From IMG/VR virus record IMGVR_UViG_3300025389_001063: a stretch of DNA of 64,000 nt; one strand, written 5' to 3'. The position numbers were made by a program, and so were the translations under genes. The notes below the pieces were generated by a model, which saw nothing but the letters and a program-made list of their open reading frames with translations, was not told where the DNA came from and made no database searches. Below, one piece after another: positions 30,262-63,738 of this stretch (within the stretch, counting starts at the first letter, position 1; the number at the start of each line of letters is the position of its first letter). The stretch is from a virus (taxonomy: Duplodnaviria > Caudoviricetes).

Positions 30262-30267
30262 TAAATA
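30261..30267 (+). promoter_or_regulatory. Late promoter
   Basis: ATAAATA upstream of an AAGG RBS and ATG 30285. Confidence 0.55.
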
Positions 30268-30284
30268 TTATAAAGGTAAAAAAT

Positions 30285-31016: not shown

Positions 31017-31027
31017 TTTCTAATGCG

Positions 31028-31034
31028 ATAAATA
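31028..31034 (+). promoter_or_regulatory. Late promoter
   Basis: cgATAAATA upstream of ATG 31055. Confidence 0.55.
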
Positions 31035-31054
31035 TTGCATAGGGATTATAAAAT

Positions 31055-44312: not shown

Positions 44313-44315
44313 CTA

Positions 44316-44344
44316 TTGATAATGTTCAATATCTGCTTTATATT
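44316..44344 (+). promoter_or_regulatory. Sigma70-like promoter of def-clpA
   Basis: TTGATA-17 nt-TATATT. Confidence 0.45.
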
Positions 44345-44350
44345 AATGAT

Positions 44351-44845: not shown

Positions 44846-47109
44846 TTTTAGAGCCAAGTGAAGACTTACAAATTATCTATGATCGGGCAATAGAGATTGC
44901 TAATTCACACCAACATGAATATCTTACCTTAGAACATCTTGTTTTATCTATTGCTAGTGATGAAAAATTTGCTACATTCTTAAATTCATATTCAGGAGAT
45001 CTAGATTATGTTCGCGTAAATCTAGAACATTTCATTAAAACTAATCTTAATGACATTGTAAATGACAGTAAAAAAATTAATCCTCAAAAAACACAGACAG
45101 TTGATCGTTGTCTTAATAGAGCATTTACACAAGTATTATTTCAAGGTCGTCAAAAAATAGAAGTTAACGATCTATTTCTTAGTATTCTAAATGAAAGAAA
45201 AAGTTACTCAGTTTACTATCTTAATAAAGCAGGGTTTACTAAAGAAAAATTTAGTGATTATGTCGATGAAGAAACAATCCAAGTAGACGACGAAACAGTT
45301 AATCCAGGTCAAGTTGATAAACTATTATCACAATTTACAACTAATATGAATCAACAAGTTCAGAAAAATAAAATTGATCCTGTTATTGGCCGTGAAACCG
45401 AAATTGAAAGTATTATTCTTGCTCTTGGACGTCGTAATAAAGCAAACGTGATTCTAGTAGGTGATCCAGGTGTTGGTAAAACTGCTATTGCTGAAGGACT
45501 TGCCTTTGAAATTGTTAATGGTGATGTTCCAGAATTTATTCAAGATAATACGATTTATAATTTAGATATCGGTGCTATGATTGCTGGATCAAAGTATCGC
45601 GGTGAATTTGAAGAAAGGCTTAAAGCAGTTCTCAAAGCTATCGAAAAGAAAGGTAAGGCAATCATCTTTATCGACGAAGCTCATATGATGAGTGGTGCTG
45701 GATCAAGTAGTAGCAATCCAAATGATATGGCTAATATGTTAAAGCCTGCTCTAAGTAAAGGTGCTATTAAAGTTATTGCTTCCACAACTTGGGAAGAATA
45801 TCGTAAACACTTTGAAAAGGATCGTGCTTTAATGCGTCGATTCCAACGTGTAACTGTTGATGAACCAACAGCAGAAGTTGCTATAGATATTCTTAAAGGT
45901 ATTAAGAAGTATTACGAAAAGTTTCACAAGGCAGAAATTACAGATGCTGCTATCGAGGACGCTGTTAAATTATCAGTTAAGTACCTCACTGATAAGAAGT
46001 TACCGGATAAGGCAATTGATCTTATTGACCTTGCTTGTTCTAGATTTAAACTTGATGCTAGTAAAGCACGAGTTGTTACAAAGAAAAGTATTGAATTTGA
46101 ATTAAGTAAGATGGTTAAACTTCCTATCGAAGCAGTTGCTGAAACAGAAAGCGAAGGACTTGCTAATCTTGAAGAAAATATGAAGCATAAAGTCTTTGGA
46201 CAGGACAAAGCAATCGACGATGTTTTAGATAAAATCTTTATTGCTCGTGCTGGACTTAAAGATCCTACTAAACCAATTGGTAGTTTCTTGTTTGTTGGCC
46301 CAACTGGATGCGGTAAGACCGAGACAGCAAAGCAACTAGCAGATAATCTTGCTGTGAACTTAATTCGCTTTGATATGAGTGAATATCAAGAGAAACATAG
46401 TGTTGCTAAGTTGATCGGCTCGCCACCAGGTTATGTTGGCTACGAAGAAAACGCAGGTATGTTAATCACTAAGGTTCAAGAACATCCACATTGTGTTCTA
46501 CTTCTTGACGAGATTGAAAAGGCTCATCCAGATGTTAGTAATGTACTACTCCAGTTAATGGATAATGGTATGGTTACTGGATCAAATGGCAAGGTTGCTG
46601 ATTGCCGTAATGTTATCTTAATTATGACATCTAATCTTGGTGCCAAGGATAGTGAAAGACAAACTATTGGCTTCTCTACAGAAGAGCGATACAACGACGG
46701 CGAAGATGCGATGACAAACTTCTTTGCTCCAGAGTTTCGCAATAGATTAGACGGTGTTATTAAGTTTAACAAGTTGGGCAAAGAGAGTATGGAACATATT
46801 GTTAAGAAGTTCATTAAGGATCTTAACAACTTGCTTGCCGAGAAAAATGTAAAGGTAGAAGTTAACGATAATGGAATGGCTCTACTCGTTAAGAGAGGAT
46901 TCAATCCAAAGATGGGTGCTCGTCCGTTAGCAAGAATTATTGATACTGATATTAAGAAACCACTTAGTCGAGAAATGCTATTTGGTAAACTTAAGAACGG
47001 TGGCATAGTTGATGTTGACGCAGAAGGAAAAGATGTTATACTGAACTTCAGAGGATCTAATGAGAATACACAAGACGGACAAACTCTTTTACCGCTCTTT
47101 TCCATATAA
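44842..47109 (+). CDS. clpA: ClpA-type two-ring AAA+ unfoldase
   Basis: HEYLTLEHL N-domain, GDPGVGKT, KYRGEFEERLK, second GPTGCGKT, LIGSPPGYVG, LLLDEIEKAH, IGF loop, PEFRNRLD, MGARPL. No ClpB-type coiled-coil M-domain. Confidence 0.93.
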   Translation: MILEPSEDLQIIYDRAIEIANSHQHEYLTLEHLVLSIASDEKFATFLNSYSGDLDYVRVNLEHFIKTNLNDIVNDSKKINPQKTQTVDRCLNRAFTQVLFQGRQKIEVNDLFLSILNERKSYSVYYLNKAGFTKEKFSDYVDEETIQVDDETVNPGQVDKLLSQFTTNMNQQVQKNKIDPVIGRETEIESIILALGRRNKANVILVGDPGVGKTAIAEGLAFEIVNGDVPEFIQDNTIYNLDIGAMIAGSKYRGEFEERLKAVLKAIEKKGKAIIFIDEAHMMSGAGSSSSNPNDMANMLKPALSKGAIKVIASTTWEEYRKHFEKDRALMRRFQRVTVDEPTAEVAIDILKGIKKYYEKFHKAEITDAAIEDAVKLSVKYLTDKKLPDKAIDLIDLACSRFKLDASKARVVTKKSIEFELSKMVKLPIEAVAETESEGLANLEENMKHKVFGQDKAIDDVLDKIFIARAGLKDPTKPIGSFLFVGPTGCGKTETAKQLADNLAVNLIRFDMSEYQEKHSVAKLIGSPPGYVGYEENAGMLITKVQEHPHCVLLLDEIEKAHPDVSNVLLQLMDNGMVTGSNGKVADCRNVILIMTSNLGAKDSERQTIGFSTEERYNDGEDAMTNFFAPEFRNRLDGVIKFNKLGKESMEHIVKKFIKDLNNLLAEKNVKVEVNDNGMALLVKRGFNPKMGARPLARIIDTDIKKPLSREMLFGKLKNGGIVDVDAEGKDVILNFRGSNENTQDGQTLLPLFSI

Positions 47110-48519: not shown

Positions 48520-50469
48520 ATGACACAACAAATTATTAATATAGGTAGCGGAGAATTAGCAGGTGACGGAGAAACACTTCGTTCGGCATTTTCAAAGATT
48601 AATGAAAACTTTAACGATCTCTATTCGAATGAATTTAATGTAATAGTAAGTGATATTACTCCTAATAATTCAAGTACAGGTGAATTGTGGTTTAGTAGTC
48701 TCGATGGTAGATTGTATGTTTATTACGACACTACTTGGGTTGATGCTAATCCATCATCAAATGTTACAAATAAATTAACTAGTCCAGACACTAGCAAAAT
48801 TGTAGTTTTAGATAATAGTGGTAATTTAACGTTGCCAAGTGGTGGTATTATTAAAAATCACGATGGTACACAATATGGCAGTAGTATTGATACTGGATCA
48901 TTCCATTTTGATGGAAACACTCTAAACAGTAGCGGCATTAGTATGCAGTTAGTACCAGACGACGAAGGTGCTACATATATTGTTATTCCATCAAACGCTT
49001 ATGGAGAATTACAGCCTCTTACTATTGCTAATGGCTTAGGAGAGGTTGATATTGTATCCGCAGGAGGACAGTGGACATTTGGACATGATGGTGTATTAGC
49101 ATTAGCAGGCGATTTAAACTTTATATACGGTGGTGCTATATTTGAAGGCGGACATGGTATAGCAGGTCGTAGTTGGAGAACAGGATTAAACATTGTAGGT
49201 AGTCAGACTACACCAACAGACCCAATACGCATTTATCCAGCAGGCGAAGACGGCAAAGGTTTTGGCATGGGCACAGTCAATGTTAAAAACGATTGTGTTG
49301 AGATTTATGGTAATAATCAAGGCGACGGCAATGGTGTTAAGTGGACATTTGCTCATGATGGTACATTAACATTACCATCTAACGGTAATTTGAATTTTGG
49401 ACAACCTTCTATAAGAGCACCTAATGTTTCATATAAAAACGAATTAATAACATTATATGATTTTCAAAATTTAGGACATGAAATAAATTACGGTATCGGA
49501 GTTGAGAATCACAATATATGGATGGCGGTTGATGCTTCAACAGCAGGATTTAAATGGTATGCTGGTGAAACTTCAATATTACAACTAAACGGTGACGGAA
49601 CTATTTCGTTCTTAAACAATACATTAAAGACACCTGTAAGTTCTGGGGCATATATTGATGGTATATCCTCAATATCTTTAGAAACACCATTTACTAATCC
49701 TTTAATATTTGCGGGACAACCTGCTACATGGGTTACTAATGGCTTAAAGATTGTAATATCTGGAGTTTCAATACCTAGTGAAGTAAATGGAACTTGGTAT
49801 ATTCAAAGTTATAATAGTTATGGATTTAGAATATTCCACGATGCGGCACTAACACAGCCAGTTGACGCAAGTAGTTGGTCAGGATATACTGGCGGTGGAC
49901 AAATTTTTTACGCCCCAACTTCATCAAACCTTAACGTAGATATAAATTCAAATGTTTGGACATTTGGCACAGACGGTACACTTAATCTTCCACTATTAGT
50001 AACTAGTAACGCAATTATTCAAACACCAGGCACTATAACTCTTAAAGCCATAAATGCTAATTTCAACTTTGGGTGGGATGGTAGTTTAACACTTCCTGGA
50101 TTAATTTTAGCCAAACAGGGATTACCAGGTACTAATGCTGGTTATAGTTTCGGCGGTACTGAAGGTGGTAGCGATACTGGTATGTTTAGTAACCAAGATG
50201 GACACTTAAAATTCTACACTAATAATAGATTAGTGTCTGAACTTACAGATAATGATACTCATTTATATGTTTACTCTGCTGATTATAATACTACTTACGA
50301 TTGGCATTTTGATAGAACAGGTGAATTAACCGTACCAACAGGTGGAACTATTTCATATTCACCAACAACTCCAAGTAATTGGAACGGTACCGCACCCACT
50401 ACAATACAAGAAGCATTAGATAGAATAGCCGCACTACTTAAAACACTAAATGGTGGTGTTGGTGCTTAA
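48520..50469 (+). CDS. Tail fibre-like protein
   Basis: gp9-like N-terminus (QQIINIGSGELAGDGETLRSAFSKINENF), GELWF..DGRLYVYY..WVDA and repeated W.F..DG.L.LP motifs. Confidence 0.75.
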   Translation: MTQQIINIGSGELAGDGETLRSAFSKINENFNDLYSNEFNVIVSDITPNNSSTGELWFSSLDGRLYVYYDTTWVDANPSSNVTNKLTSPDTSKIVVLDNSGNLTLPSGGIIKNHDGTQYGSSIDTGSFHFDGNTLNSSGISMQLVPDDEGATYIVIPSNAYGELQPLTIANGLGEVDIVSAGGQWTFGHDGVLALAGDLNFIYGGAIFEGGHGIAGRSWRTGLNIVGSQTTPTDPIRIYPAGEDGKGFGMGTVNVKNDCVEIYGNNQGDGNGVKWTFAHDGTLTLPSNGNLNFGQPSIRAPNVSYKNELITLYDFQNLGHEINYGIGVENHNIWMAVDASTAGFKWYAGETSILQLNGDGTISFLNNTLKTPVSSGAYIDGISSISLETPFTNPLIFAGQPATWVTNGLKIVISGVSIPSEVNGTWYIQSYNSYGFRIFHDAALTQPVDASSWSGYTGGGQIFYAPTSSNLNVDINSNVWTFGTDGTLNLPLLVTSNAIIQTPGTITLKAINANFNFGWDGSLTLPGLILAKQGLPGTNAGYSFGGTEGGSDTGMFSNQDGHLKFYTNNRLVSELTDNDTHLYVYSADYNTTYDWHFDRTGELTVPTGGTISYSPTTPSNWNGTAPTTIQEALDRIAALLKTLNGGVGA

Positions 50470-50501
50470 CGATAAATATCGAATAACAAGGACAACTAAA
50501 G

Positions 50502-52055
50502 ATGGCCATATTAAATTTTCCAAGTAATCCAAATGTAGGAGATCAGTATACTGGCGATAACGGTACTACATATATTTGGGATGGTGTTAAATGGGTAGGT
50601 CATGCTGCTGCTGGAACTGCTGGCACAAATAGCATTTATAGTGGATCAAATGTTTTACAAGTAGATTCAGGTGGTAATCTTATTGCTCCAGCATATACAT
50701 TTCCTAATACAACAGGTACAACTGGACAAGTATTATCTTGGCCCGGTAGCGGAACTACCCTAGTATGGACTACTCAAAGCGGAGGAAGTGGTGGACCAAC
50801 AGATAGATTAATCAGTCCAGATACTACAAAAACATTTATATTAGACAATACTGGCACATTAACATTACCAAGTGGCGGATCCCTAACAAATGACAACGGA
50901 CTATTAGGACCAGAAGGTGGTTATAGTTATATCAGTGATTACAATCAAAACAATTACTTCTATGTAGATGAAAATAGTTCTCAAATTGTTACACTTTATG
51001 GTCAATGGACATTTGATAACGATGGAAATATAACATTACCACTAGTAACAAAAATGAATTCAGGTGGTATTAATACTACCAATTCTGTAGAATTTGGTAC
51101 AGAAGTAGCAACTGATCCTTATCCACCGTTTGGTATTGCTAATATCACTAACAGTGAAATTTATATGAGTGGTGGTTCAGCAGAAAGTCGCATCATCACA
51201 AATGCTAGTACAGGCAGTTTAATTTATACAGGTGTTGAGAATGTTGAATTACCAGGATTTGCTGGTATGGTTGCTATTGATCCAAATGTCGATAGCCAAT
51301 ACAGCATCGATATAGATAGTAATGGAAATATATTATTAGGTGCTGTTCAAGAATATGGTACATTAACATCAACAGATGGATATACAGCAGGATTAGGTGT
51401 TCTTAATTATAATTATACAATAAATGGTATATTGGCTAATCAAAGTATAACAGCATTAACTGGATCAATAGGTATTTCAATGAAGACTGATCGTGGGCAG
51501 ATATGGTTTGGTAATCAACCAGAACCAGGCGGACCTACACACTTCCACATAATGAAAGGTTCGCTTAGTTATGGAAATATGGATCTTATCTTCGGAGACG
51601 ACTTTAACTTCATCAAATTACCTTATTCAGAAGACAATGTAACAATTACAGCAACAACTTCTGGTATTCAAGCAACATGGCAATTTAGTGGGGACGAAGG
51701 TACTTTAACTTTACCAAATGGTTCAGAAATTTATGCGCTCTCTCCTACTAACACCGTTATTGCTGGTCCACAGAATTTCTCAATTTATACAACAGAATCT
51801 CCAGGATGGACTTTCCAAACTGATGATGGTTTACGTTTTCCAGATAATACTGTACAGACTACTGCTTGGGATTATCGTAATTTAGAAAATATTGATATGG
51901 ATGGCGGAGCAGCCAGCACAGTATACAGCGTGAATGTTAGATTTGCTGAAGGTGGTGCGGCTGGTACGAGATTTAGCAACACAGATCCTAACTACAATGG
52001 TGCTAGCGCATACGGTGCTGAACCAGAATTTACTTTAGACGGCGGAAGAGCATAA
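50502..52055 (+). CDS. Tail fibre-like protein
   Basis: LNFPSNPNVGDQY..YIWDGVKW N-terminus, GQVLS, W.F..DG repeats and C-terminal DGG repeats. ATAAATA at 50472. Confidence 0.75.
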   Translation: MAILNFPSNPNVGDQYTGDNGTTYIWDGVKWVGHAAAGTAGTNSIYSGSNVLQVDSGGNLIAPAYTFPNTTGTTGQVLSWPGSGTTLVWTTQSGGSGGPTDRLISPDTTKTFILDNTGTLTLPSGGSLTNDNGLLGPEGGYSYISDYNQNNYFYVDENSSQIVTLYGQWTFDNDGNITLPLVTKMNSGGINTTNSVEFGTEVATDPYPPFGIANITNSEIYMSGGSAESRIITNASTGSLIYTGVENVELPGFAGMVAIDPNVDSQYSIDIDSNGNILLGAVQEYGTLTSTDGYTAGLGVLNYNYTINGILANQSITALTGSIGISMKTDRGQIWFGNQPEPGGPTHFHIMKGSLSYGNMDLIFGDDFNFIKLPYSEDNVTITATTSGIQATWQFSGDEGTLTLPNGSEIYALSPTNTVIAGPQNFSIYTTESPGWTFQTDDGLRFPDNTVQTTAWDYRNLENIDMDGGAASTVYSVNVRFAEGGAAGTRFSNTDPNYNGASAYGAEPEFTLDGGRA

Positions 52056-53119
52056 TGGCAAACAGAATACAACTAAGACGAGATCACAGCACAAACTGGA
52101 CTAGGATAAATCCCGTCCTTAGCGACGGTGAACCAGGTTTAGAAATAGACACTAATAAGGTCAAATATGGCAATGGAGCCACAGCCTGGCGTGATTTAGG
52201 TTATGCTGGTGCTGGGTTTCGCTATGCCCGCATACAAGAAGGAATTCCATCAACACCCTTAACCAGCATCACAGGCATAGATGACGATGGCCTAAGTCTA
52301 ACCAGCAATAATTTCGCACAGTTAATGTGGGTACCTAATACCGATACTGTAACACTAGTTGATATCAACGGAGACACTGGAGGTCCCGCTCATTTCAGTT
52401 GGGCCTATGTGGATGATACGGGATTTAATGTAGAAAACAAGCAACCAAGTTCGAATTTTAATTGGCAGTTTAATTTCGACGGCTCCACGCAGTTCCCTTA
52501 TTATAAATTTCCAACCGCAGATGGTTCGGCCAATCAGGTATTAAAGACCGACGGCAATGGAACATTGAGCTGGACTACTATATCTGCCACCACAAATCAA
52601 CTGGTCAGCGGCAGTTTTACAGTAAGTTTAGATAGTGGCACAGGTGTATTAACCGTACCTGGATTTATGAATTTAACCTACAGCCAAGGTGGCGCCGATA
52701 CAATGAACTTTGGCACAGGCCCTGGAGGTGGAAGTATCAATGCCACGTCAGGCAAAAGCATTTATCTAACCACCAATGGAGGTGACGAACAGTGGGTTTT
52801 TGGCACAGATGGTGTTTTAACTCTAAGCACCTCAAGTACAATCCTAGGTAATAATGTTGATCCTAATGTCTATATCGAAACAGTCAGTGGCGGTACAACA
52901 AATACTTGGACATTTAGTACAACTGGTACATTAACATTACCAGACGGTGGTACATTAAGAATCAAAGGATCACCACCAAACACTAGCAAAGGTGTAGCAG
53001 GTGATAAGGCAGGTATGATAGCATTTAGCACAGGATTTATCTATCATTGTTACAATGATTACACAGACGGTACTGGAGATATCTGGGGTCGCGTTGCTAT
53101 AGATAACGGTACTTTCTAA
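52055..53119 (+). CDS. Fibre/adhesin with an Mtd-N (hyaluronidase-N)-type N-terminus
   Basis: RIQLRRD..NW...NPVL..GE.GLE.DT.K.K.G.G.TAW..L.Y. Confidence 0.75.
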   Translation: MANRIQLRRDHSTNWTRINPVLSDGEPGLEIDTNKVKYGNGATAWRDLGYAGAGFRYARIQEGIPSTPLTSITGIDDDGLSLTSNNFAQLMWVPNTDTVTLVDINGDTGGPAHFSWAYVDDTGFNVENKQPSSNFNWQFNFDGSTQFPYYKFPTADGSANQVLKTDGNGTLSWTTISATTNQLVSGSFTVSLDSGTGVLTVPGFMNLTYSQGGADTMNFGTGPGGGSINATSGKSIYLTTNGGDEQWVFGTDGVLTLSTSSTILGNNVDPNVYIETVSGGTTNTWTFSTTGTLTLPDGGTLRIKGSPPNTSKGVAGDKAGMIAFSTGFIYHCYNDYTDGTGDIWGRVAIDNGTF

Positions 53120-53120
53120 T

Positions 53121-54476
53121 ATGTCAATAACTATTCGTTCAGCACAGACTATACGAAACGGAGTAACTCTGCGGGGAAATAGAGGAGACTATATTTTATA
53201 CCTAGATGCAGCCAATCCTGCCAGTTATCCAGGAACAGGCGGTACTTGGTATGATCTCAGTGGTTACGGACGTGATGCCACTCTAGTGAACGCTCCTACT
53301 TTTAACTACAATTCTATCGATTTTGATTATAACAGCAGTCAATTCGCTGTGATAGGTCCAACCGATATGTTTAGCGGTGGAGATATGACTGCTATTGGTT
53401 GGGTCTATATCCGCAGTTACCAAAGCTGGAGCAGATTATTTGATTTTGGTAATGGCGAACTACAAAATAATGTCTTAATAGCCATCAGTGAAGGAACATT
53501 TGGTCTTCCTGTTTATAGCACTATTGGGGGGGATGACATATACAGTAGTCAAACACTTCCCTTAAATCAATGGGTACAATTAGTGGCTGTACAATCAGGT
53601 TCTAATGGTTTAATATACATTAACGGAACACAGGTTGCTAATGCTACTAACACAGGAATAGCTAGTGTTACAAGAAATTACAATTATATAGGTCGCAGTA
53701 ACTGGCCTAGTGATGCTTATCTAGACGGCAAAGTGTCTAGTCTAAAGATATGGAACCGTGCCCTAACTGTTAGTGAAATCCTAGCAGACTATAATAACAA
53801 TCGACCTACTTCACTTCCTATATTATTTGAACTAGATGCCAAACACTATTCCGGCTCTGGCACAGACTGGGTGGATCTTAGCAACCATGGACGAGATGCT
53901 ACCATATATGGCAATCCTTCCTGGGACAACAGCGATGCGGGTGGCAGTTTCGTCTTTACACACGATACCACTCAATATATTGAAGTACCAGGTAGTAGTA
54001 GCGGTTGGGGGTTAAACACCGCCAGTAACAATCCCAATGCTAGTTTTAGCGTATGGGCCAAGATTTCTCCTTTTGGATATTTTCAACACATTGCTGGATG
54101 GCGTGGTGGACTAAACTTCTGGTTCCTTATATCACCCACTGGCCAAGTAGAAGCCAGATTTGATGGCGGAACACCTCTAGATATAAATCTAGATTATACT
54201 CCCTATTACAACACATGGACTCAGGCTACATTTGTCGTTGATTCTGCTAACAGCCAAACTAGGATTTATATCAATGGTACACTGGTAGGAAGTCACGATA
54301 GCATCACGGGTGTATTTGGAACAGGATCTACTAACTTTAGATTAGGTTGTGATGCTGTGGGTGATAACTTTGCTATGAATGGTAAAATAGGTGGGGCTAT
54401 AGCCTATAGCCGAGCCCTTACACAAGAGGAAATTACCGAGGAATTTAATAGAACCAAGACAAGGTACGGACTATGA
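53121..54476 (+). CDS. Tandem LamG/concanavalin-A-like lectin domain protein
   Basis: Two repeats of L.LDA..SY.G.G..W.DLS..G..ATL...YING......G.I.....RAL...EI...YN. Confidence 0.8.
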   Translation: MSITIRSAQTIRNGVTLRGNRGDYILYLDAANPASYPGTGGTWYDLSGYGRDATLVNAPTFNYNSIDFDYNSSQFAVIGPTDMFSGGDMTAIGWVYIRSYQSWSRLFDFGNGELQNNVLIAISEGTFGLPVYSTIGGDDIYSSQTLPLNQWVQLVAVQSGSNGLIYINGTQVANATNTGIASVTRNYNYIGRSNWPSDAYLDGKVSSLKIWNRALTVSEILADYNNNRPTSLPILFELDAKHYSGSGTDWVDLSNHGRDATIYGNPSWDNSDAGGSFVFTHDTTQYIEVPGSSSGWGLNTASNNPNASFSVWAKISPFGYFQHIAGWRGGLNFWFLISPTGQVEARFDGGTPLDINLDYTPYYNTWTQATFVVDSANSQTRIYINGTLVGSHDSITGVFGTGSTNFRLGCDAVGDNFAMNGKIGGAIAYSRALTQEEITEEFNRTKTRYGL

Positions 54477-54513
54477 ACCTAACTAACATAAATACGAATA
54501 TCGGAGATATCAA

Positions 54514-56964
54514 ATGGCAAGTAAAATTCAACTAAGAAGAGACCTAGCCGCAAGTTGGGGAAATATAAACCCAATACTAGCGCAGGGCGAACCTGGTGCG
54601 GAACTAGATACGGGTAAAATGAAGTTGGGAGACGGGATAACAGCCTGGAATCAACTGCCCTACACTAGTTCAAATGATTACGAAGACAAGTTTGTTTTCT
54701 TATTTTCAGGAGGCGATTATTATGCCGCAGGAAACAGCACCAGCCGTGATGGCTTACACTGGACTGGAACTGATATCAACAGCGAATTTTGGAATGGCGA
54801 TTACAACAGTTCCTATGCTTATGACCTAGCAGTAGGCAATGGTCGTGTGGCTTATCTAGTTTATAATGAAATCTTTGATCGTAACCTTGTGATGTACAGC
54901 GAAACTCCAGGTAGTGCCTTAGTGGATCCAAACATCACTAGATTCCTAGAAGAACAAGGAGCCAACATACAGCGCAGTTGGGTTACCAGCCAAGACTTCT
55001 ATAACTATCTGTTTAGCAACAGTGGTAATCAAAACTGGGTCACAGTGTTCGGTCCAAACGGTGAACCTATCAATTGGCAAGGTATCAAATTCCAAGGCGG
55101 TTATTTCATAGCCTATGGTAGTTATTTAGACTCAGTAATCAATGATGGTCGCGAGCGTCCTTACTTTGTCTACAGCACAGATGCTGTACATTGGACACGC
55201 GGTTATGTGGATTTGACTTTTGTTACCAACAAAATGGACGCATACGCCAATACCTACAATAACAACTCCAATGATTATGCCATTAGGGGTGTAAACTACA
55301 ACGGTCATGGTTGGTTGTTTAACATGAAGTACTGGTGGGACAGTATCGACAATGATACATCTACTGGTGCTTTTTACTTGACCGATCTTTCAATGGGATT
55401 CACCAGCGACAGTTGGTTCCCAATGAACGGCGCCTACAGCATGAATTTTGATGGACAAGGTTGGGGCGGATACATGGGTGATGACCGCATGATATTCAAC
55501 AGCAACACAGATCCACGAGTGGGTGGTTGGCGAGAAGTCAATATTAGCGATGCCCAACAGGAAGTATGGGGAGATCATGCTAGTACCAATTGGAGCGGCA
55601 GTCGTTCATTTGTAGCTGGTCCTCTAGCAGATGGTACTCCTATGTTCATGGTACCACTCGGTAATGGTCGTGTTCTGACCACTACCAATCAAGGCGCCAG
55701 TTTTGGTGGATCAACTCCTGCCGCTCGTGTAGACAGCATCGTAGACTTCTACGGTGCCAGTCCTGCTGAGATACTTACATACAATGAAAACAACAGTGGC
55801 AATACTGGTATACAACAGGTAGTGATCACCGGATCACTGAATGGTCAGGCAGATGGAACATTCTATGCCCAGCAATATGATGACTATGCTTATAAACTTT
55901 ATCATGACTATGCTCTAAGTTATCCAGTCGACGGCACAGGTTGGACTAATGGTAATTTATTCGATAATGCCTATATCACATTTACACAGCAAGGTATAGA
56001 ACTAATTTATATTACCTACGGTGGTGGCAAGTTCGTAGCATTCAGCGATAACTGTGCCAACAACTACATGACCGAAGATGGCTATAACTGGAAATATGGT
56101 TTTGCGTGGAATGTGGTAGGTGATTTTGATTTTAACGCAGAACATATCGCCTATGGTCGTGTTAGCACAGATGGACAGATTGTAGTCAATGATGAAACTT
56201 ACCCAGGTGGTGCTAACAGCCTTACATTGGGCAACAACTTTGATGTACAGGTCAACAGCGGAGATCCATTATCATCTGAGACACAGAATAATGGCAATGG
56301 TCGAGATTTGTCGGATGGTACTGGCTATCTAAGCATCCGTCCTTATAACGCTCAGTGGCGTATTGGCGCTTATGGTAGAACCGACGGAGGCCCAAACCCA
56401 TACAGTTTCCTAGGTTCAGATGACTACTATGATACATTTAATGGTCCAGATTACAGCGGTCAGCCATCATATTTTCCTGGAGGTCCAGACATACGACTAA
56501 CCACATTCTGGGGTGACTGGTATTTTACATCTAATCCTACTCACGATTATAATCAACTTATAATGTCAAACGATGCCGATATCGTAACGGTAGATCAAGA
56601 AAGTTTCTTGAAAGATATACCTCGTAATTATCAAACCAGTGCTACAAGTTATACATTGGCATTGACTGATCGTGGTAGATTTGTTTGGTTTGATGGTACA
56701 GCAGGCAATGTCACTGTAACCCTTCCGGCCAATGCCACTACAAATTTCCCTATTGGTGCTAGGATACAGTTAGGCATCTCAGGTGTTACTGACAACAGTA
56801 GGCAGATAACTGTAACACCCGCAGGAGGAGTAACACTAAGAGGCAGAGAAGACAACAACAGTCCAGGTGCTGGTTCGTTGATCATCCGTAGCGATATGTT
56901 AGTAACTTTGACACAGGTTGATACAGACTTTTGGATCCTAAGCGGCCCATACATAACAGATTAA
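54514..56964 (+). CDS. Fibre/adhesin with an Mtd-N-type N-terminus
   Basis: KIQLRRD...W..INPILAQGEPG.ELDTGKMKLGDG.TAWNQLPY, aromatic-rich beta segments, C-terminal TSYTLALTDRG module. ATAAATA at 54488. Confidence 0.75.
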   Translation: MASKIQLRRDLAASWGNINPILAQGEPGAELDTGKMKLGDGITAWNQLPYTSSNDYEDKFVFLFSGGDYYAAGNSTSRDGLHWTGTDINSEFWNGDYNSSYAYDLAVGNGRVAYLVYNEIFDRNLVMYSETPGSALVDPNITRFLEEQGANIQRSWVTSQDFYNYLFSNSGNQNWVTVFGPNGEPINWQGIKFQGGYFIAYGSYLDSVINDGRERPYFVYSTDAVHWTRGYVDLTFVTNKMDAYANTYNNNSNDYAIRGVNYNGHGWLFNMKYWWDSIDNDTSTGAFYLTDLSMGFTSDSWFPMNGAYSMNFDGQGWGGYMGDDRMIFNSNTDPRVGGWREVNISDAQQEVWGDHASTNWSGSRSFVAGPLADGTPMFMVPLGNGRVLTTTNQGASFGGSTPAARVDSIVDFYGASPAEILTYNENNSGNTGIQQVVITGSLNGQADGTFYAQQYDDYAYKLYHDYALSYPVDGTGWTNGNLFDNAYITFTQQGIELIYITYGGGKFVAFSDNCANNYMTEDGYNWKYGFAWNVVGDFDFNAEHIAYGRVSTDGQIVVNDETYPGGANSLTLGNNFDVQVNSGDPLSSETQNNGNGRDLSDGTGYLSIRPYNAQWRIGAYGRTDGGPNPYSFLGSDDYYDTFNGPDYSGQPSYFPGGPDIRLTTFWGDWYFTSNPTHDYNQLIMSNDADIVTVDQESFLKDIPRNYQTSATSYTLALTDRGRFVWFDGTAGNVTVTLPANATTNFPIGARIQLGISGVTDNSRQITVTPAGGVTLRGREDNNSPGAGSLIIRSDMLVTLTQVDTDFWILSGPYITD

Positions 56965-56976
56965 GGAAGACATAAC

Positions 56977-57432
56977 ATGACATTAAGACAAGTAAAAAGA
57001 GCCAGCGATCTACATCCTAAAGCCGCAGGTCCCAAACCACAGGCTGTAGTATGGAGTGCTATAGGAGATGATACTGAAACCAAACTGAGTGTGGTCTTGT
57101 TAACTAAACACGGTGCCTCAGTTACAGTTAACAAGTTAGACAATAACCCTACACTAAAAACACAGTTTACTACCACTTATCCTGAACAGAAAAAATTACC
57201 TTATATTGTAGTTGACGGGACTGCTATCGGTGGATTTAAAGAACTAAAATTAAATCCTACTTACTCTTTAATTAAGGCACCTACTCCAAAGGCTGCTCCA
57301 GTTAAACCAACCAAATTTGGTAATGGTAGTGGTATAACTCCAATAGCAGAAGGACAAAAAGCATATAATTCAATTCGTGCTCCTAAGGCACCAGTTGTAC
57401 CAAAGACTCTACCAGAGGCACCAAAGAAGTAA
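56977..57432 (+). CDS. Glutaredoxin-fold protein lacking CxxC, with a Pro/Lys-rich tail
   Basis: KKLPYIVVDGTAIGGFKEL matches the Grx cis-Pro and IGG motifs. The protein contains no Cys. Confidence 0.55.
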   Translation: MTLRQVKRASDLHPKAAGPKPQAVVWSAIGDDTETKLSVVLLTKHGASVTVNKLDNNPTLKTQFTTTYPEQKKLPYIVVDGTAIGGFKELKLNPTYSLIKAPTPKAAPVKPTKFGNGSGITPIAEGQKAYNSIRAPKAPVVPKTLPEAPKK

Positions 57433-57434: not shown

Positions 57435-58250
57435 ATGTTAAAGAGAGAACCTAGATACCCAAACAGAACTTTAGCAATAAGTCCTACGCCAAGATATAAT
57501 TGGCGTCCGGATAAATCAGATTCAAGAGATTATATATTTGAAAAATTAAACACTATTCCGGCAACTTTGCCCCCTAGTGTTGACCTAAGATCTCATTGTC
57601 CACCTATTGTAGATCAAGGACAAGTTGGATCATGTACTGGTTGTGCTATTGCCGGTATTATTGGTTACTACGATAATACACATAATAAAAGCGGGATTGT
57701 TGTTAGTAGATTGTTTATCTATTATCAAGAACGCCTTTTAGAAGGTACTATTTATTATGATGCTGGTGCTTATATACGTGACGGTATTAAAGCATGTAAT
57801 CAATGGGGTGCTCCTCTAGAAACACTTTGGCCATATCTAGCAAATAAAGTAACTACTCGTCCTAGCACTGGAGCATATACTGATGCTGCTAAACGCAAAG
57901 CGGGTACTTATCAAAAAGTTACTACACAAGCGGCAGGTATTAAAGCCTCACTGAATCTTGGATTTCCTGTAGTGGTTGGATTTACTGTTTATGCAAGTTT
58001 TGAAGGTAATACAAATAATACAACAGGCATGATGCCTTATCCTAATACTTCTTCAGAACAAATATTAGGTGGACATGCTGTAGCAGTTGTAGGTTATGAT
58101 GATAACTTGAATGGTGGTAGATTTATTTGCCGTAATAGTTGGGGAACTAATTGGGGTGATCATGGTTACTTCTATATGCCTTACCAAGTTATTAACAATG
58201 CCAATATGAGTAGCGACTTCTGGGCAATCACTGGCGTAAGTAATCCATAA
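57435..58250 (+). CDS. Papain-like (C1A) cysteine peptidase
   Basis: VDLR..DQGQVGSCTG, GGHAVAVVGY and RNSWGTNWGDHGYFY catalytic motifs. Confidence 0.93.
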   Translation: MLKREPRYPNRTLAISPTPRYNWRPDKSDSRDYIFEKLNTIPATLPPSVDLRSHCPPIVDQGQVGSCTGCAIAGIIGYYDNTHNKSGIVVSRLFIYYQERLLEGTIYYDAGAYIRDGIKACNQWGAPLETLWPYLANKVTTRPSTGAYTDAAKRKAGTYQKVTTQAAGIKASLNLGFPVVVGFTVYASFEGNTNNTTGMMPYPNTSSEQILGGHAVAVVGYDDNLNGGRFICRNSWGTNWGDHGYFYMPYQVINNANMSSDFWAITGVSNP

Positions 58251-58480: not shown

Positions 58481-58484
58481 TTTG

Positions 58485-58506
58485 ATAAATATCCTATAGA
58501 AGGATA
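58485..58506 (+). promoter_or_regulatory. Late promoter with a short SD-occluding hairpin
   Basis: ATAAATA 58485-58491. TATCCT (58490-58495) pairs with AGGATA (58501-58506), which contains the SD. Confidence 0.5.
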
Positions 58507-58511: not shown

Positions 58512-58835
58512 ATGAAAATTCTTGAACTTATGGAAGCAGTTACTCAAAGCGACTTCATGAGAGAAGATTGGCAAAAAGTCAATAAGAAAGATAAAACAGA
58601 CGGTATGAGTAAAAAAGCCGTTAAAGCCTATCGCCGTGAACATCCTGGCAGTAAACTAAAAACTGCTGTTACTACCAAACCAAGCAAATTGAAAAAAGGT
58701 TCTAAGGACGCTAAAAGACGCAAGAGTTTCTGTGCTAGAATGAGTGGCATGAAAAAGAAAAATGCTAGTGCTAAAACTAAGAGAGATCCAGACAGCCCAA
58801 TCAATAAGGCATTGCGTCGTTGGAACTGTGAGTAA
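58512..58835 (+). CDS. Basic protein, DUF6321-like
   Basis: KRRKSFCARM..KTKRDPDSPINKALRRWNC; N-terminus MKILELMEA. Confidence 0.65.
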   Translation: MKILELMEAVTQSDFMREDWQKVNKKDKTDGMSKKAVKAYRREHPGSKLKTAVTTKPSKLKKGSKDAKRRKSFCARMSGMKKKNASAKTKRDPDSPINKALRRWNCE

Positions 58836-58837
58836 TT

Positions 58838-60871
58838 ATGTTTTTAAGAGAATTCTTTTATAGATCAAACCCAATTATTATTGAAGGTGGTAATGTACAA
58901 ATTGGCCCGCACAGTGCGGAAAGAATCAATTTGAAGAAAATTCCACGCAATCAAATTGTTCCGATTATTGACAATCTATTACATTCAGTCAATTCTGCTT
59001 TCCAATCAAAATTTAAGACTCCACTTTGGTCGCCACAACTACTACAGAAAAAAGAATTCCTCAGTGGATCGGCATTTCACTTTCTCAATCCAGGAATTCC
59101 AGATGAAAAATTTGTTCAACATAAACCTAGTGTTGGAGATATTGACACAATGGTTGATAAAAATAAAAGAGAACAAGTAGAACAATTTTTAAATTCAGTT
59201 ACAAACAAAAAGATTGGTCCTGCTACATTACTTGGCTTTAAACCTAATCCTGGAGGTGATCAATTTATTACATTATGGGAATTCAGTGAGCCACCAATCA
59301 AGATACAAATTGATTTAGAACTTGTAGAATTCCACGGTGCTGGTCCAAGTGAATGGTCAAAGTTTAGTCACTCTAGTGATTGGGCAGACCTCGAAGCAGG
59401 TGTTAAAGGAGTATTCCACAAATACTTATTAAGAGCATTTACTACAAATACTCTCAAAGATCGTCTCGTACAAATGAAAACAAAACTTAAACCAGTTAAG
59501 AGTACAGACGTTGCCTTTGCTGTTACTGGTGGTATGAGAGAAAAATATAAACCAGTTTTAGATGCTAATGGTAAACAAAAAGTTGTAGACGGGTTACCTG
59601 TATATACAGAAGTTCCAGCAAAAGACTCAACATATGTTAATTCAACAGAAGGCATGTTTGAATTAATATTTGGTAAACCACCGGTAGGAGGAGAAGAAAA
59701 ACTCCTCGGTTCATTTATAGGTGGATTACAATTAGCAAACAAATATCTTGATGATGAACATAAAAAGTTATTGCTAGATGGTTTTGTTAATACACTATTT
59801 GGACAAACTGCTCAAGAACTTTATAAAGGTGATCCAGAATCAGATCGTGCTGAAAAAGAAGTTGCTCTCAAAACTATGCTTGAAAAATTAGGCATGAAGA
59901 TGGACACAAATATACAGCAAATGGAAAAGTCTTTTTACAGTAATTATAAAATGGATGAAGAATTAGACGAAGAGGAAGTTGTTTCAAGTCGTCGTACAGG
60001 AATTAGCCATCTACAAGGTATGAAAGATTTAGAGTTTATTGAACTTATTAAGAAAATTAAAAACGAATATCAAGGTAAATTAAGCAACGTAAAGATGACT
60101 CTTAAAGTTGATGGTCTCGGTGCTCGCTTTGGTAAAGACGCAGAAGGTCGTCCATTTTTTGAAAGTTCAAGAAGCGGACCAATCTTTACAGCAGGTTCAT
60201 TTATATCACATGCTAAAAGCAGAGGATTTGAAGGTGAAAAACTTGCTCGTGCTGAAAAGTATGACGAAATTTATAACCTAGTCGTTAACAGTGACTTTGT
60301 TAAGAAGTTACCTAATGATATTAAAATTCATTGTGAGATACTTTATAATCCAATGGCAGAAGAAACAGAGAATGGCTTGAAGTTTGTCACAGTTTCTTAT
60401 GATAGAAAACTACTAGGCGAAGTAATGACTATTGTTCCATTCTACGCAGAAGTTGCTTCTACTGGACAAAAGTATTCTAAGAGTGAACAAATTAAAGACG
60501 AACTAATTAGATCTGGTAGTGGTAATGGTATTAAATTTGTTGATGACAGATTAATGTCAGACACTATCGATATTACTGGCGAAATTGATCCATTACTAAC
60601 AATGATCAACGATCGCTTTATTGCTAAACTTACATCAAGAACTAAAGCAGACGCTGAAGAAAAGTCGCAACTAAAGGCTATGGTTCAAAGTGTTAAGGAC
60701 AATTTGGCAGATTATATCTTTAGACATCCAAGCATTGCTGGTAAAGATAAATTGGGCAAAGACATTGAAGGTATTATACTTCATAGAGATAAAGAAGCCC
60801 CACTAAAGATCACTACTCCAGATTTTAAGCAAGCAATCGCAGCAAAGAAGAACCCAAATGTTGTTAAGTGA
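58838..60871 (+). CDS. Two-domain protein: Pol-beta-type nucleotidyltransferase plus ligase-like (KxDG) domain
   Basis: LSGS...VGDIDTMVD...IQIDLE in the N-half. TLKVDG, HCEILY, DIEGIIL and LKIT in the C-half. Acidic linker DEELDEEE. Confidence 0.55.
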   Translation: MFLREFFYRSNPIIIEGGNVQIGPHSAERINLKKIPRNQIVPIIDNLLHSVNSAFQSKFKTPLWSPQLLQKKEFLSGSAFHFLNPGIPDEKFVQHKPSVGDIDTMVDKNKREQVEQFLNSVTNKKIGPATLLGFKPNPGGDQFITLWEFSEPPIKIQIDLELVEFHGAGPSEWSKFSHSSDWADLEAGVKGVFHKYLLRAFTTNTLKDRLVQMKTKLKPVKSTDVAFAVTGGMREKYKPVLDANGKQKVVDGLPVYTEVPAKDSTYVNSTEGMFELIFGKPPVGGEEKLLGSFIGGLQLANKYLDDEHKKLLLDGFVNTLFGQTAQELYKGDPESDRAEKEVALKTMLEKLGMKMDTNIQQMEKSFYSNYKMDEELDEEEVVSSRRTGISHLQGMKDLEFIELIKKIKNEYQGKLSNVKMTLKVDGLGARFGKDAEGRPFFESSRSGPIFTAGSFISHAKSRGFEGEKLARAEKYDEIYNLVVNSDFVKKLPNDIKIHCEILYNPMAEETENGLKFVTVSYDRKLLGEVMTIVPFYAEVASTGQKYSKSEQIKDELIRSGSGNGIKFVDDRLMSDTIDITGEIDPLLTMINDRFIAKLTSRTKADAEEKSQLKAMVQSVKDNLADYIFRHPSIAGKDKLGKDIEGIILHRDKEAPLKITTPDFKQAIAAKKNPNVVK

Positions 60872-61532
60872 ATTATTTGAAGCAAGCACAGAAGTTGCTA
60901 TTATATTTGGAAGGTTTAATCCTCCACACAAAGGTCATAAGGCTGCGTGGGAAATTGCTGCCCAATCACCAATATGGTATATAGGTACCAATAAGTCCAC
61001 CATTGGACCAAAAGATCCTTTGCCTTATGATGTTAAGATTAAAGCAATGCAAGTAATTTGGCCAGATATTAAAGGACACATTGTTGCTGAACAAAGTTGG
61101 CTAACTCTTTGCTCAAGAGTATTCGAAGAACACGGTGATGTTATTCTTAATGTTGTTACTGACGAAGAATATGTTTTTAAACTCATTGCACAATATAACG
61201 GTGTAGAAGGTAAACAACATGGATTTTATAAATTTACAACAATAAATCCAAAACCTAGTCCAAGAATAAGTTCTGCTACTGACCTAAGAGCCGCAGTTAC
61301 TAACGATAATCCAGATGCGTTTGCTAAGGCTGCTGGTGTTCCTGCTGATACATTAATTGCTGGTGTTCCATATTTTGAACTTGTAAAAAAATATATGACC
61401 CCAGACCCTAAAGTTAAAACAAAGAAAACAAAAGAAGAATGTGCCGGCGTTGGTATTGTAACAAAACAAAACTCTACAGCAGATGTTGGATCTGGAACTA
61501 TTAAAAAGAATATGAAGGCGTTTAAATTATGA
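60858..61532 (+). CDS. Cytidylyltransferase-like (HIGH-motif) nucleotidyltransferase
   Basis: IIFGRFNPPHKGH, KDPLPYDVK and RISSATDLRAA. Confidence 0.75.
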   Translation: MLLSELFEASTEVAIIFGRFNPPHKGHKAAWEIAAQSPIWYIGTNKSTIGPKDPLPYDVKIKAMQVIWPDIKGHIVAEQSWLTLCSRVFEEHGDVILNVVTDEEYVFKLIAQYNGVEGKQHGFYKFTTINPKPSPRISSATDLRAAVTNDNPDAFAKAAGVPADTLIAGVPYFELVKKYMTPDPKVKTKKTKEECAGVGIVTKQNSTADVGSGTIKKNMKAFKL

Positions 61533-61732
61533 ACATTAAAGAACTTCAAAAATTAGCAGGTATTACATCTGAAGAAAAGACAGATGAAAATATTTCTACT
61601 GCTTATGCTGATAAACGCAAGAAAGAAAAAGAAGAAAACATATCACCAGGATCAGATGAATGGTTCAAACTCTGGTTCAAAAGAAAACCAGGTCTAGGCA
61701 TGCCCCCAGTATTTCGTGGAAGAAAAAAATGA
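61529..61732 (+). CDS. Small hypothetical protein
   Basis: MNIKELQKLAGI...PGSDEWFKLWF; 4-nt overlaps with both neighbours. Confidence 0.65.
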   Translation: MNIKELQKLAGITSEEKTDENISTAYADKRKKEKEENISPGSDEWFKLWFKRKPGLGMPPVFRGRKK

Positions 61733-62856
61733 GATTAAGAGAAGTATTTGAAGATATACAAGGACCAGGAGTTACAACTGCTCCATTCTTAAAGGATGGA
61801 CCTCTTAAGGTTTCTAAACACTTTACAAGTCGTCTTAAAGAGAGAGATTTAGATCTAAAAACTGTTGCTCGTTTTATTAGCAAAGCAATTAAAAAGAATA
61901 AAGCAGAGATAGAAGCACTTCCAGTTGATACATCATTTATTCTAAAATCTAAAATAGGTTTAGGTGTTGCTATTGTTAAACAAGAAACTCCAGATGGAAT
62001 TGTATACTTGATTAATACAGCTCATCCACAATTTAGTGTTGGAGCAAATCAAGAAGTATTTTTAGGTGATAGTAAACTACTTGATAAGAAGACTCCAACT
62101 ATCGGAGAACTTGCTGAAAAATATCACACAAGTCTTATTGCTGTTGAACTTCAACTTAAAAAAGGCATCAAGGTTGAAATGGAACACACTAAGAAACACA
62201 GTGTGGCAAAAGAAATTGCTTTAGACCATTTGGGAGAAGATTTATATTATTATGAAAAATTAGCCAAAGTAGAAAAAAATGAGTCTTGTGGACCTAGTTG
62301 TACCTGTCCAAAATGTAAAGCAACAAATGAAGGTCAATTTAGAGCAGATGATGTTGAGGAATTCAAACCGAGTAAAAGTCAATTAGGCGATCTAAAATCC
62401 AAATATCTCCCAGATTGGGAAATGTTAGATCATAGAATTCTACAAGCAGATTATAATGCTAAAGATCATAGACATGCTGAAAAGTTTATTGAGAGAATCA
62501 ATAAAATTAGTGAAGAAATGGATCATTTTTGTGAAGTAACTCAAGATGTTGCTGAAGTTACAGTAAAGACTACAACATCAGATGTTAAGGGGTTAACACT
62601 TTTAGATTTCCAAATTGCCATGCGTATAGATAACTTGGCAGAGAAAATGGATATTGAACAGATCCGTTCAAAAGGTAATTTTGATGAAAACTTTGCGGAC
62701 GGAAAAGGTCCAGGTAGACCAGGAGATAGTGCTAGACACGGCATACCTAAAGGTGCTACAATAGCACAGTTAGAAAAGGCATCAAAGGCAAAAGGACGCA
62801 AAGGTCAATTGGCACGTTGGCAATTGAATATGCGTAGAGGTAAAAAGAAAGGCTAA
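61729..62856 (+). CDS. Multidomain protein with a DUF5661-like segment and a pterin-4a-carbinolamine dehydratase-like domain
   Basis: GIKVEMEH..AKEIALDHL.ED..YY.KL, then LPDWE..F..I..I.EEMDH..V.V..TT.DV.GLT.LD...A..ID. Probable ATG 61729. Confidence 0.6.
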   Translation: MRLREVFEDIQGPGVTTAPFLKDGPLKVSKHFTSRLKERDLDLKTVARFISKAIKKNKAEIEALPVDTSFILKSKIGLGVAIVKQETPDGIVYLINTAHPQFSVGANQEVFLGDSKLLDKKTPTIGELAEKYHTSLIAVELQLKKGIKVEMEHTKKHSVAKEIALDHLGEDLYYYEKLAKVEKNESCGPSCTCPKCKATNEGQFRADDVEEFKPSKSQLGDLKSKYLPDWEMLDHRILQADYNAKDHRHAEKFIERINKISEEMDHFCEVTQDVAEVTVKTTTSDVKGLTLLDFQIAMRIDNLAEKMDIEQIRSKGNFDENFADGKGPGRPGDSARHGIPKGATIAQLEKASKAKGRKGQLARWQLNMRRGKKKG

Positions 62857-62858
62857 AA

Positions 62859-63209
62859 ATGTATAACAAAGTTGATGATAGATCTGAAGAAATGTTTATT
62901 GGATGTGAATGTAATTCCCCGGCACATATTATTCGTGTTAGTTATTGGGACTGGGGATTAAAAGATTCTCCTGAATTTTATTTTGAACTCCAAAGCGATA
63001 TGCCTCATAGTTTCTTTACACGAGTAAAGAAGGCTTTTAATTATATATTCTTTGGTACTCGTTTAGATTGGCACGATGTTATTCCTAAAGCAGATGATCT
63101 TCGTAAACTCCAGATTCTTATTTCTAAATATTTAGATCGCTATGATCATTATGAGGCTCATTGTAAGATTGAATGGAAAAAGAAAAAGGAGTCAAATGAA
63201 ACTATTTGA
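62859..63209 (+). CDS. Hypothetical protein
   Basis: 116-aa ORF with CxCx..H near the start. Confidence 0.65.
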   Translation: MYNKVDDRSEEMFIGCECNSPAHIIRVSYWDWGLKDSPEFYFELQSDMPHSFFTRVKKAFNYIFFGTRLDWHDVIPKADDLRKLQILISKYLDRYDHYEAHCKIEWKKKKESNETI

Positions 63210-63738
63210 ACTTAATCAAAACATAGGGAAACATGTTCCTGAAATCTATGTCGACATGGATGGTGTACTTGCTGATTTCTTTGGGGAGTGGGCAAAATTA
63301 GATGGTGTAGATCATTATAAAGATATTGATAATCCAGAAGCAAAATTAGCTCTAGTTAGAGAACATCCAAACTATTGGATTAATCTTCCTGTATTACCAA
63401 ACGCAGGTAAATTAATGGGATTTATTAAAAAGAATTTTGGACACTATAATATTTGTTCAAGTCCACTTGCTGGTGATCCACAATGCGAACCACAAAAGAG
63501 ATTGTGGGTTAAGAAACATCTAGCAGGCTTTCCACCAGATCATGTAATCATTACAGAAAACAAAGCAGCATATGCTACACAAGCAGACGGATCACCAAAT
63601 ATTTTAATTGATGACTTTGGTAAAAATATTGCCGCCTGGAATAACGCAGGCGGCATTGGTATCAAACATAAAGATCATAAATTAGATAGAACTTTAAATG
63701 AATTAGCAAATTATATAAATGCTAGATCTCAAGCATAA
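63196..63738 (+). CDS. 5'(3')-deoxyribonucleotidase-like HAD hydrolase
   Basis: IYVDMDGVLADF, ICSSP, KRLWV and ILIDD motifs. AAGGAG RBS before ATG 63196. Confidence 0.85.
   Translation: MKLFELNQNIGKHVPEIYVDMDGVLADFFGEWAKLDGVDHYKDIDNPEAKLALVREHPNYWINLPVLPNAGKLMGFIKKNFGHYNICSSPLAGDPQCEPQKRLWVKKHLAGFPPDHVIITENKAAYATQADGSPNILIDDFGKNIAAWNNAGGIGIKHKDHKLDRTLNELANYINARSQA

Follow-up and report, generated by a model that had tools for sequence, protein, structure and literature searches.

A shared N-terminal leader resembling the T4 capsid-targeting sequence suggests head packaging of an enzyme array in an uncultured jumbo phage

Introduction

In bacteriophage T4, internal proteins reach the prohead core by means of a capsid-targeting sequence (CTS) of 10-19 residues, of which residues 4 and 7 are important for targeting and residues 8 and 10 for processing (PMC9026906; PMC3012670), and the head protease gp21 cuts after L/I-x-E (PMC9026906). 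Here, we describe a gene array at positions 58512-63738 of a 64,000-nucleotide stretch of DNA (the window) from the IMG/VR record IMGVR_UViG_3300025389_001063, part of an uncultured T4-like jumbo phage with ~34% G+C, in which most products open with a shared leader that we consider likely to be a CTS-like propeptide for packaging into the phage head. The likeness to T4 lies in a short N-terminal tag (~8-19 residues) that is found on unrelated late proteins and ends in an L/I-x-E/A gp21 site (a slash marks the cut throughout), and in the presence of a gp21-type protease and a Gp23-type capsid protein in the phage lineage, as read in relatives. The differences are that the present leader is 1-2 residues shorter than MKTYQEFIAE, that some members have a variable linker before the cut site, that the cargo consists mostly of large enzymes (up to 677 amino acids [aa] here and 1602 aa in relatives) where T4 packs small basic inhibitors, and that about ten genes stand in one array.

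Three other described systems invite comparison. The T4 protein Alt is a head-packaged, injected ADP-ribosyltransferase (ART) with the propeptide MELITELFDE, which is removed by gp21 (PMC9026906); the array of a close relative (L116, a 347.5-kb scaffold) likewise holds a tagged ART-PolyVal gene, whereas this gene is absent from the present window and belongs to another ART clade than Alt. Polyvalent proteins combine enzymatic, nucleic-acid-binding and peptidoglycan-attacking domains in late, virion-linked polypeptides that are predicted to be injected, with ART-PolyVal domains and mixed architectures as their hallmarks (Iyer et al. 2017, PMC5512222). The two enzymatic domains of the 677-aa protein described below, the DUF5661 and Pterin_4a domains of a 375-aa protein, and the lysozyme and GH19 fusions and ART-PolyVal of relatives resemble them, but most domains in the window are separate genes, each with its own leader, and the predicted route is a CTS-like propeptide rather than a MuF or portal fusion. 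In phiKZ, 201phi2-1 and SPN3US, a diverged homologue of gp21 processes many proteins of the head interior, the ejection and inner-body proteins, by cutting after the Glu of a three-residue motif (PMC9026906); the sites there are S/A-x-E, no shared N-terminal leader has been described, and the phage lineage is a different one. Use of the CTS by T4-like phages to pack varied proteins has already been suggested in a review (PMC9026906). In the literature that we searched, CTS-like gene arrays outside T-even phages were not found, and the only paper to name the CTS and cyanophages together is a T4 review.

Results

A shared leader on the genes of the array

The readable record is a 107-kb fragment with an estimated completeness of 28%, and the head region lies outside it. 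The array and the promoter box before it comprise the following features, the last of which lies past the window end and is given, like others there, in window-equivalent positions.

58484-58491, plus strand: T4-type late promoter box GATAAATA, 20 nucleotides before the ATG of the first array gene
58512-58835, plus strand: very basic 107-aa protein, net charge +20, with leader MKILELME/A, then DUF6321 (Pfam E = 6e-13)
58838-60871, plus strand: 677-aa two-domain enzyme with a predicted 16-residue propeptide MFLREFF...IIE/GGN, a DNA polymerase beta (Pol-beta)-like nucleotidyltransferase (NTase), a Glu-rich linker and an ATP-dependent ligase-like domain (KVDG)
60858-61532, plus strand: 224-aa HxGH cytidylyl/adenylyltransferase-like enzyme with leader MLLSELFE/A (PHROG cytidyltransferase, E = 1.6e-14)
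61529-61732, plus strand: 67-aa protein of a conserved small family, start MNIKELQKLAG
61729-62856, plus strand: 375-aa protein with leader MRLREVFE/D, an N-terminal domain of no known family, DUF5661 (E = 1.3e-9), Pterin_4a (E = 1.6e-17) and a basic tail
62859-63209, plus strand: 116-aa Cys/His-containing protein without leader, conserved inside the array; weak PHROG hits only
63196-63738, plus strand: 180-aa NT5C-type 5'(3')-deoxyribonucleotidase with leader MKLFEL and a linker, then HAD motif I DMDGV
65328-65597, window-equivalent (L001:18372-18641, minus strand): 89-aa basic tagged protein with leader MKIKELIEA

The six N-termini that the preliminary description of this DNA had listed in the window were all found at the coordinates it gave. 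Four are at the first ATG of their own open reading frame (ORF), namely 58512 (MKILELMEA), 58838 (MFLREFF), 60858 (MLLSELFEA) and 61529 (MNIKELQK), and two are at in-frame ATGs inside longer ORFs (61729, MRLREVFED; 63196, MKLFELNQ). Both of the latter are likely true starts, 61729 because its ATG shares an ATGA with the stop codon of the preceding gene, and 63196 because it overlaps the upstream gene by 14 nucleotides and an identical 180-aa entry (P0149) begins there. The eight-residue motif proposed earlier, M-x-(I/L)-x-E-(L/F)-x-E, is fitted in full only by 58512 and 60858, and all six fit the shorter M-x-[IL]-x-E-[LFV]. Further tagged starts follow past the window end at 65328 (MKIKELIEA), 65600 (MLLRDFVEQ), 66646 (MNLSDLLSE) and 68596 (MKVDELIKT), and all ten members have hydrophobic residues at positions 3 and 6, three apart like residues 4 and 7 of the T4 leaders.

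With a loose leader pattern (M-x-[ILV]-x-[ED]-[LFV]), a comparison across the 107-kb record placed the leader squarely in the block, where 10 of 13 plus-strand ORFs carry it, against 2 of 120 ORFs elsewhere (Fisher p = 5.3e-11); the motif follows 1.0% of internal Met residues. The codons behind it vary among genes (the position-6 Leu is CTT, TTA or CTG, or is replaced by Phe or Val, and positions 2 and 4 are free), and the leader is therefore conserved as a peptide. One might suspect a by-product of composition or of a translation-start preference in an AT-rich phage with Lys/Leu/Glu-rich starts, given the low G+C content and the frequency of AAA and GAA codons after start codons. Yet the motif is scarce at the other ORFs and at internal Met residues, and specific positions are kept in hundreds of homologues while the linker that follows varies, so that this explanation, already contradicted by the enrichment, has a negligible probability in our view.

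The gene at 12705, which had been counted as an additional member, did not hold up: its start, MRELRKLAQLVE, does not match the motif, and the sequence directly before its ATG (12630-12704, plus strand) resembles the 3' end of a tRNA gene (GGTTCGAACC...CCACCA). We excluded it from the tag set on these two grounds, and the tRNA-like sequence further indicates that the gene is not in a late-promoter context. Elsewhere outside the block, a 70-aa ORF at 8508-8720 (plus strand) begins MNLFELSTGE and is the sole other strict leader match in the 107-kb record. Basic C-terminal tails of array proteins show a weak trend (p = 0.045) and may reflect the purine-rich ribosome-binding site of the following gene.

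The leader as a detachable extension

Related loci were collected with the 677-aa enzyme; a single-sequence query gave none, and an alignment query found 80 related viral contigs. On these, 301 of 1819 ORFs were tagged, 300 of them on the strand of the family gene, and they fell into 86 sequence clusters. Position 7 was F, I or L in 68% of the 301 tagged ORFs and positions 8 and 9 were enriched for E, none of these positions being part of the search pattern. Among the best 120 homologues of the 677-aa enzyme, nearly all begin M-[KRLF]-[LIA]-x-E-[FL]-[FL] and 67 fit the leader pattern, and the leader is conserved while homologues are only 35-45% identical.

Leaderless forms of the same proteins occur in other phages. 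Homologues of the 677-aa enzyme from Stenotrophomonas phage YB07, Xanthomonas phage X1, Vibrio phage Va1 and P0066 start M-GGN. The leader is present in 76 of 120 NT5C homologues, and motif I is at residue 16-20 in tagged forms versus residue 10 in untagged ones, which begin 6-10 residues closer to it. The HxGH domain, leaderless in YB07 and X1, forms the C-terminal part of ~900-1600-aa members of the 677-aa family that have a single leader in relatives, and in the present genome is a separate gene bearing its own; a split gene with its own leader is what one would expect of a signal required on every polypeptide. The leader is, in short, a portable N-terminal add-on, present on hundreds of homologues of the 677-aa enzyme and of NT5C and missing from others, which open at the catalytic domain itself.

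Portability of this kind could also arise if the shared start were a junction at which phages swap cassettes by recombination, the peptide itself having no function. Array gene content does vary among relatives, domains are shuffled, fused and split, and each cassette opens with the same motif. The nucleotide sequences of the leaders differ, however, leaving identical stretches too short for homologous recombination, and conservation is at the peptide level among homologues of such low identity; we judge a recombination junction to be highly improbable.

A conserved cleavage site and its link to the head protease

The strongest single result for a link to the head protease comes from the N-terminally extended homologues of the 677-aa enzyme: of these 105, 104 place [LIVM]-x-E immediately ahead of GGN, 97 of them as L/I-x-E. 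This GGN lies anywhere from residue 9 to 37, with a linker of variable length, and is the exact start of the leaderless homologues. Within the array, candidate sites read LME/A, LFE/A, LIE/A, VFE/D, FVE/Q, LSE/S and IIE/GGN. The T4 sequences that we read are MKTYQEFIAE/A (IPII and IPIII), MKTFKEF...ITE/A (IPI), MELITELFDE (Alt) and MEGLIE/A (gp67), and a core of E-F/L-hydrophobic-x-E is common to the T4 leaders and the present ones.

The gp21 protease family was searched for and not found in the phage's own 107-kb record, a fragment without head genes. Peptidase_S77 is encoded on three of the five long related contigs that bear the same arrays. The capsid protein of relatives belongs to Pfam Gp23, and the point at which T4 gp23 is cut, after E65, aligns with YLAE/SATAGATSAGNVATL. 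Among 120 capsid proteins of the clade, this site hardly varies. The capsid-protein search yielded relatives of 93% identity or higher only, with none on the 352-kb or 347-kb contigs.

The small tagged family of the 65328 gene, found in at least 16 related contigs, reads L-I-E/AATAGATSSGSIATV and copies the predicted capsid maturation site together with the next ~15 residues. In the two relatives where both genes were seen, the residue after Glu agrees between the capsid protein and the small tagged protein (S and S in G001, A and A in G005). A tblastn search of cultured phages with the 89-aa protein gave no match.

The gene directly after the portal gene also has a leader-like start in three of three head modules of relatives (MLLREFFYF, MLLNEFIYF or MFIVEMF). 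A BLAST comparison of this small protein with T4 gp68 was not significant (E = 0.39), and it is therefore only a positional analogue of T4 gp67/gp68. In the head module of G001, the small leader-bearing gene that follows the portal gene is separated from the core and protease genes by a 232-aa gene (L093:11068-11766).

Late promoters

The block lies behind a T4-type late promoter sequence, as had been proposed, with the box at 58484-58491 listed above. Boxes of the form NATAAATA occur 17-29 nucleotides before many gene starts, and 20 of the 25 plus-strand copies of ATAAATA fall in the 60-nucleotide zones upstream of gene starts, which make up 6.5% of the DNA. A GATAAATA-type box is found 19-24 nucleotides 5' of 58512, 65328, 66646 and 68596, and the same box stands 5' of the fibre and baseplate genes at 22510, 30285, 31055, 48095, 50502 and 54514. 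Because this box matches the T4 late promoter type, late expression is to be expected, and the array should be co-expressed with the virion genes.

Predicted enzymes of the array

Pfam, PHROG and Foldseek bore out the earlier domain assignments (nucleotidyltransferase, ligase-like, pterin-dehydratase-like and nucleotidase, and, by PHROG and below the Pfam cut-off, HIGH-type NTase), and the Glu-rich linkers described between domains are represented in the 677-aa protein around residues 366-380. The AlphaFold2 model of this protein has a mean predicted local distance difference test score of 88.7, with two confident domains, residues 1-17 and 373-378 below 50, and a short helix at residues 2-8. 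Its N-terminal half has no Pfam hit and matches the palm and thumb of DNA polymerase beta in Foldseek (probability 1.0), with G100, D101 and D103 invariant (G-D-x-D). The C-terminal half matches RNA and DNA ligases (probability 0.97-1.0) at low template-modelling scores, and K423, D425 and G426 of motif I (KxDG) are invariant in 35 homologues. In Vibrio phage Va1, the leaderless homologue has RNA ligase and CCA-adding genes for neighbours, a hint that the enzyme may act in RNA repair.

The protein encoded at 60858 has an HKGH motif and scores 17 bits for Pfam CTP_transf_like, under the 21-bit cut-off. That at 61529 has no Pfam or PHROG match, and its family has homologues in at least nine arrays of relatives (for example, MDLSELKRLAGI...). 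The 61729 product contains a pterin-4a-carbinolamine dehydratase-like domain by Pfam, and its ortholog in L116 bears the same leader. The nucleotidase at 63196 is supported by Pfam NT5C (E = 4.7e-8, 33.5 bits against a cut-off of 24.8) and PHROG (E = 4.9e-26), with DMDGV at residues 20-24. In the 58512 protein, DUF6321 begins at ...EDWQK, and in the relative L088 the leader MRAREFINE runs straight into DWQK. Array genes past the window end include an NTP_transf_2 protein and a 560-aa multi-module protein. We found no papers on DUF6321 or DUF5661 in the literature searched.

L116, whose NT5C protein is 76% identical to the present one, has the same array, with a 117-aa ortholog of the leaderless 62859 gene at the same position, plus the tagged ART gene:

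L116:2529-3014: 161-aa ART-PolyVal ADP-ribosyltransferase with leader MKVDEL, start MKVDELLAYHGS, between the orthologs of 62859 and 63196

Other relatives extend the range of cargo. A dCMP deaminase bears the leader, NT5C is fused to GH19 in one relative, members of the NTase-ligase family are fused to LysM and a phage lysozyme and reach 1602 aa, and there is also a PG_binding_1 protein.

Hints from cultured phages

The product of gene 1-56 of Campylobacter phage vB_CcoM-IBB_35 begins MKLSELMFILE/GGN and matches the first half of the 677-aa protein with 31% identity (E = 7e-33). This product is among the 38 virion proteins detected by electrospray ionization tandem mass spectrometry, with 17% coverage, beside gp23, gp20 and the gp21 protease (PMC3322345 Table S2). 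Cyanomyophages have DUF6321 at the C-terminal end of a protein of 430-470 aa whose gene lies between those of the terminase. The gene that follows such a DUF6321-ending protein in Synechococcus phage S-RIM8 (L113:5237-5563, 108 aa), likewise between the terminase genes, begins MKSYNEFISE, nearly a T4 CTS, from which it appears that CTS-like leaders exist in cultured cyanomyophages too.

The surroundings of the array

The array is preceded by baseplate and fibre genes at 22510-35062 and 48520-56964, continues past the window end and terminates at a 1477-aa fibre-like gene; its flanks within the window are fibre genes. Megablast of 14 kb against cultured phages gave no match. Neighbouring features are as follows.

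43428-47109, plus strand: genes for a DnaJ-like protein, a peptide-deformylase-like protein and a 755-aa ClpB/ClpA-like AAA+ protein
56977-57432: 151-aa gene between the tail-fibre genes and the array, before the peptidase gene
57435-58250, plus strand: papain-family (Peptidase_C1) cysteine protease, between the tail-fibre genes and the array
63729 to window-equivalent 65233, minus strand: three genes (75, 62 and 352 aa) that interrupt the array

The minus-strand trio, with only weak MazE-like and DAPDH_C hints, looks like an insertion because it is missing at the equivalent spot in L116. In L008 and L009, two relatives, the DnaJ, deformylase and ClpB-like genes are directly 5' of the leader array; here they lie 11 kb 5' of it, with tail-fibre genes inserted between trio and array.

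These neighbours bear on another explanation, in which the leader docks to a partner other than the head, such as the tail or baseplate, a ClpB-like ATPase/DnaJ chaperone or a modifying enzyme, or in which cleavage at Glu exposes a Leu/Phe degradation signal. The position of the chaperone-like genes, the fibre genes on either side of the array and the radical-SAM gene that adjoins the Campylobacter homologue all lend it some colour. Linkage to Clp and DnaJ may, however, be mere conserved gene order, and three features speak for the head protease instead: an L/I-x-E kept almost without exception at the domain boundary, a copied capsid maturation site, and the leader of the gene that follows the portal gene, so that we hold a different partner to be unlikely. 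A tag linked to radical-SAM enzymes was set aside, since the genes listed around the arrays of L008, L009 and L116 include none of the radical-SAM type, and the papain-like peptidase at 57435 was rejected as the leader-processing enzyme because no such gene is near these three arrays.

Discussion

We propose that the leader is a CTS-like propeptide in which a short amphipathic helix (M-[KR/L]-[LIA]-x-E-[FL]-[FIL]) is followed, in some members after a variable linker, by a hydrophobic-x-Glu site. The array would be transcribed from its late promoters along with the virion genes, and the leader would dock each protein onto the prohead scaffolding core. A gp21-type prohead protease would then cut after Glu, as the conservation of the site suggests, freeing the mature enzyme inside the head, and the enzymes would exit with the DNA at the next infection. 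The predicted cargo comprises the Pol-beta-like NTase/ligase-like enzyme, the HxGH NTase, the DUF5661/pterin-dehydratase-like protein, NT5C and small basic proteins of the DUF6321 type. In interpreting the block, the preliminary description had invoked T4 capsid targeting; that analogy and the domain calls stand, and the 12705 example falls. The analogy is well supported by the detachable leader, the L/I-x-E at domain starts, the late promoters, the protease and capsid site of relatives, and the homologue in the IBB_35 virion.

Several points weigh against packaging. The protease and capsid evidence comes from relatives, because the phage's own head genes lie outside the 107-kb record, and packaging and cleavage in this lineage are predictions drawn from genes. 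Docking of the leader is proposed by analogy with T4, for which no CTS-binding partner has been defined. Four of the ten leaders (58838, 61529, 63196 and 68596) have no Glu at position 8 or 9 and depend on sites further downstream. The enzymes can do without packaging, as other T4-like phages have leaderless homologues of them, and it is hard to see what a few nucleotidase or pterin dehydratase molecules in the head would be for. Finally, the IBB_35 virion list also includes an ExsB/QueC-like protein (PMC3322345) and may, for that reason, hold contaminants.

On balance, we regard targeting of the tagged proteins to the head, followed by gp21-type cleavage, as quite probable from the sequences, and the CTS-like propeptide as a whole, packaging included, as likely, if by a little less. 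Delivery of the tagged proteins into the host, which is suggested by the fusions of cargo to lysozyme, GH19 and LysM domains in relatives, has in our estimate an even chance, and a role in anti-defence or host takeover is conceivable. More tentatively, and with the odds somewhat against it, a large clade of uncultured freshwater T4-like jumbo phages might both load an enzyme kit by way of this propeptide for delivery with the DNA and use the small basic protein, inside the head, as a mimic of the capsid maturation site and the mature N-terminal arm. In that combined reading, the kit would consist of an RNA-repair-like Pol-beta NTase/ligase, an HxGH NTase, NT5C and a pterin-dehydratase-like protein, joined in relatives by an ADP-ribosyltransferase, a deaminase and lysozymes, and the mimic might, for example, occupy the N-arm binding site on the inner shell or compete for the protease.

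Conclusions

The principle discussed here is known from T4; new are the present clade, the enzyme cargo, the conserved cleavage site at a domain boundary and the putative capsid-site mimic. Cultured Campylobacter phages, one tagged homologue of which is already on a virion protein list, offer a test ground. The leader together with L/I-x-E would give a simple sequence rule for predicting injected proteins in metagenomes, and natural leaders of this kind are suggested for loading foreign proteins into T4-like capsids. If the tagged proteins are indeed packaged, the three-protein trick of T4 would become a general delivery system, by which abundant environmental phages may deliver ready-made enzymes of RNA repair, nucleotide metabolism and protein modification into the cell before phage gene expression, and which would change the set of phage genes that count as "early" weapons.

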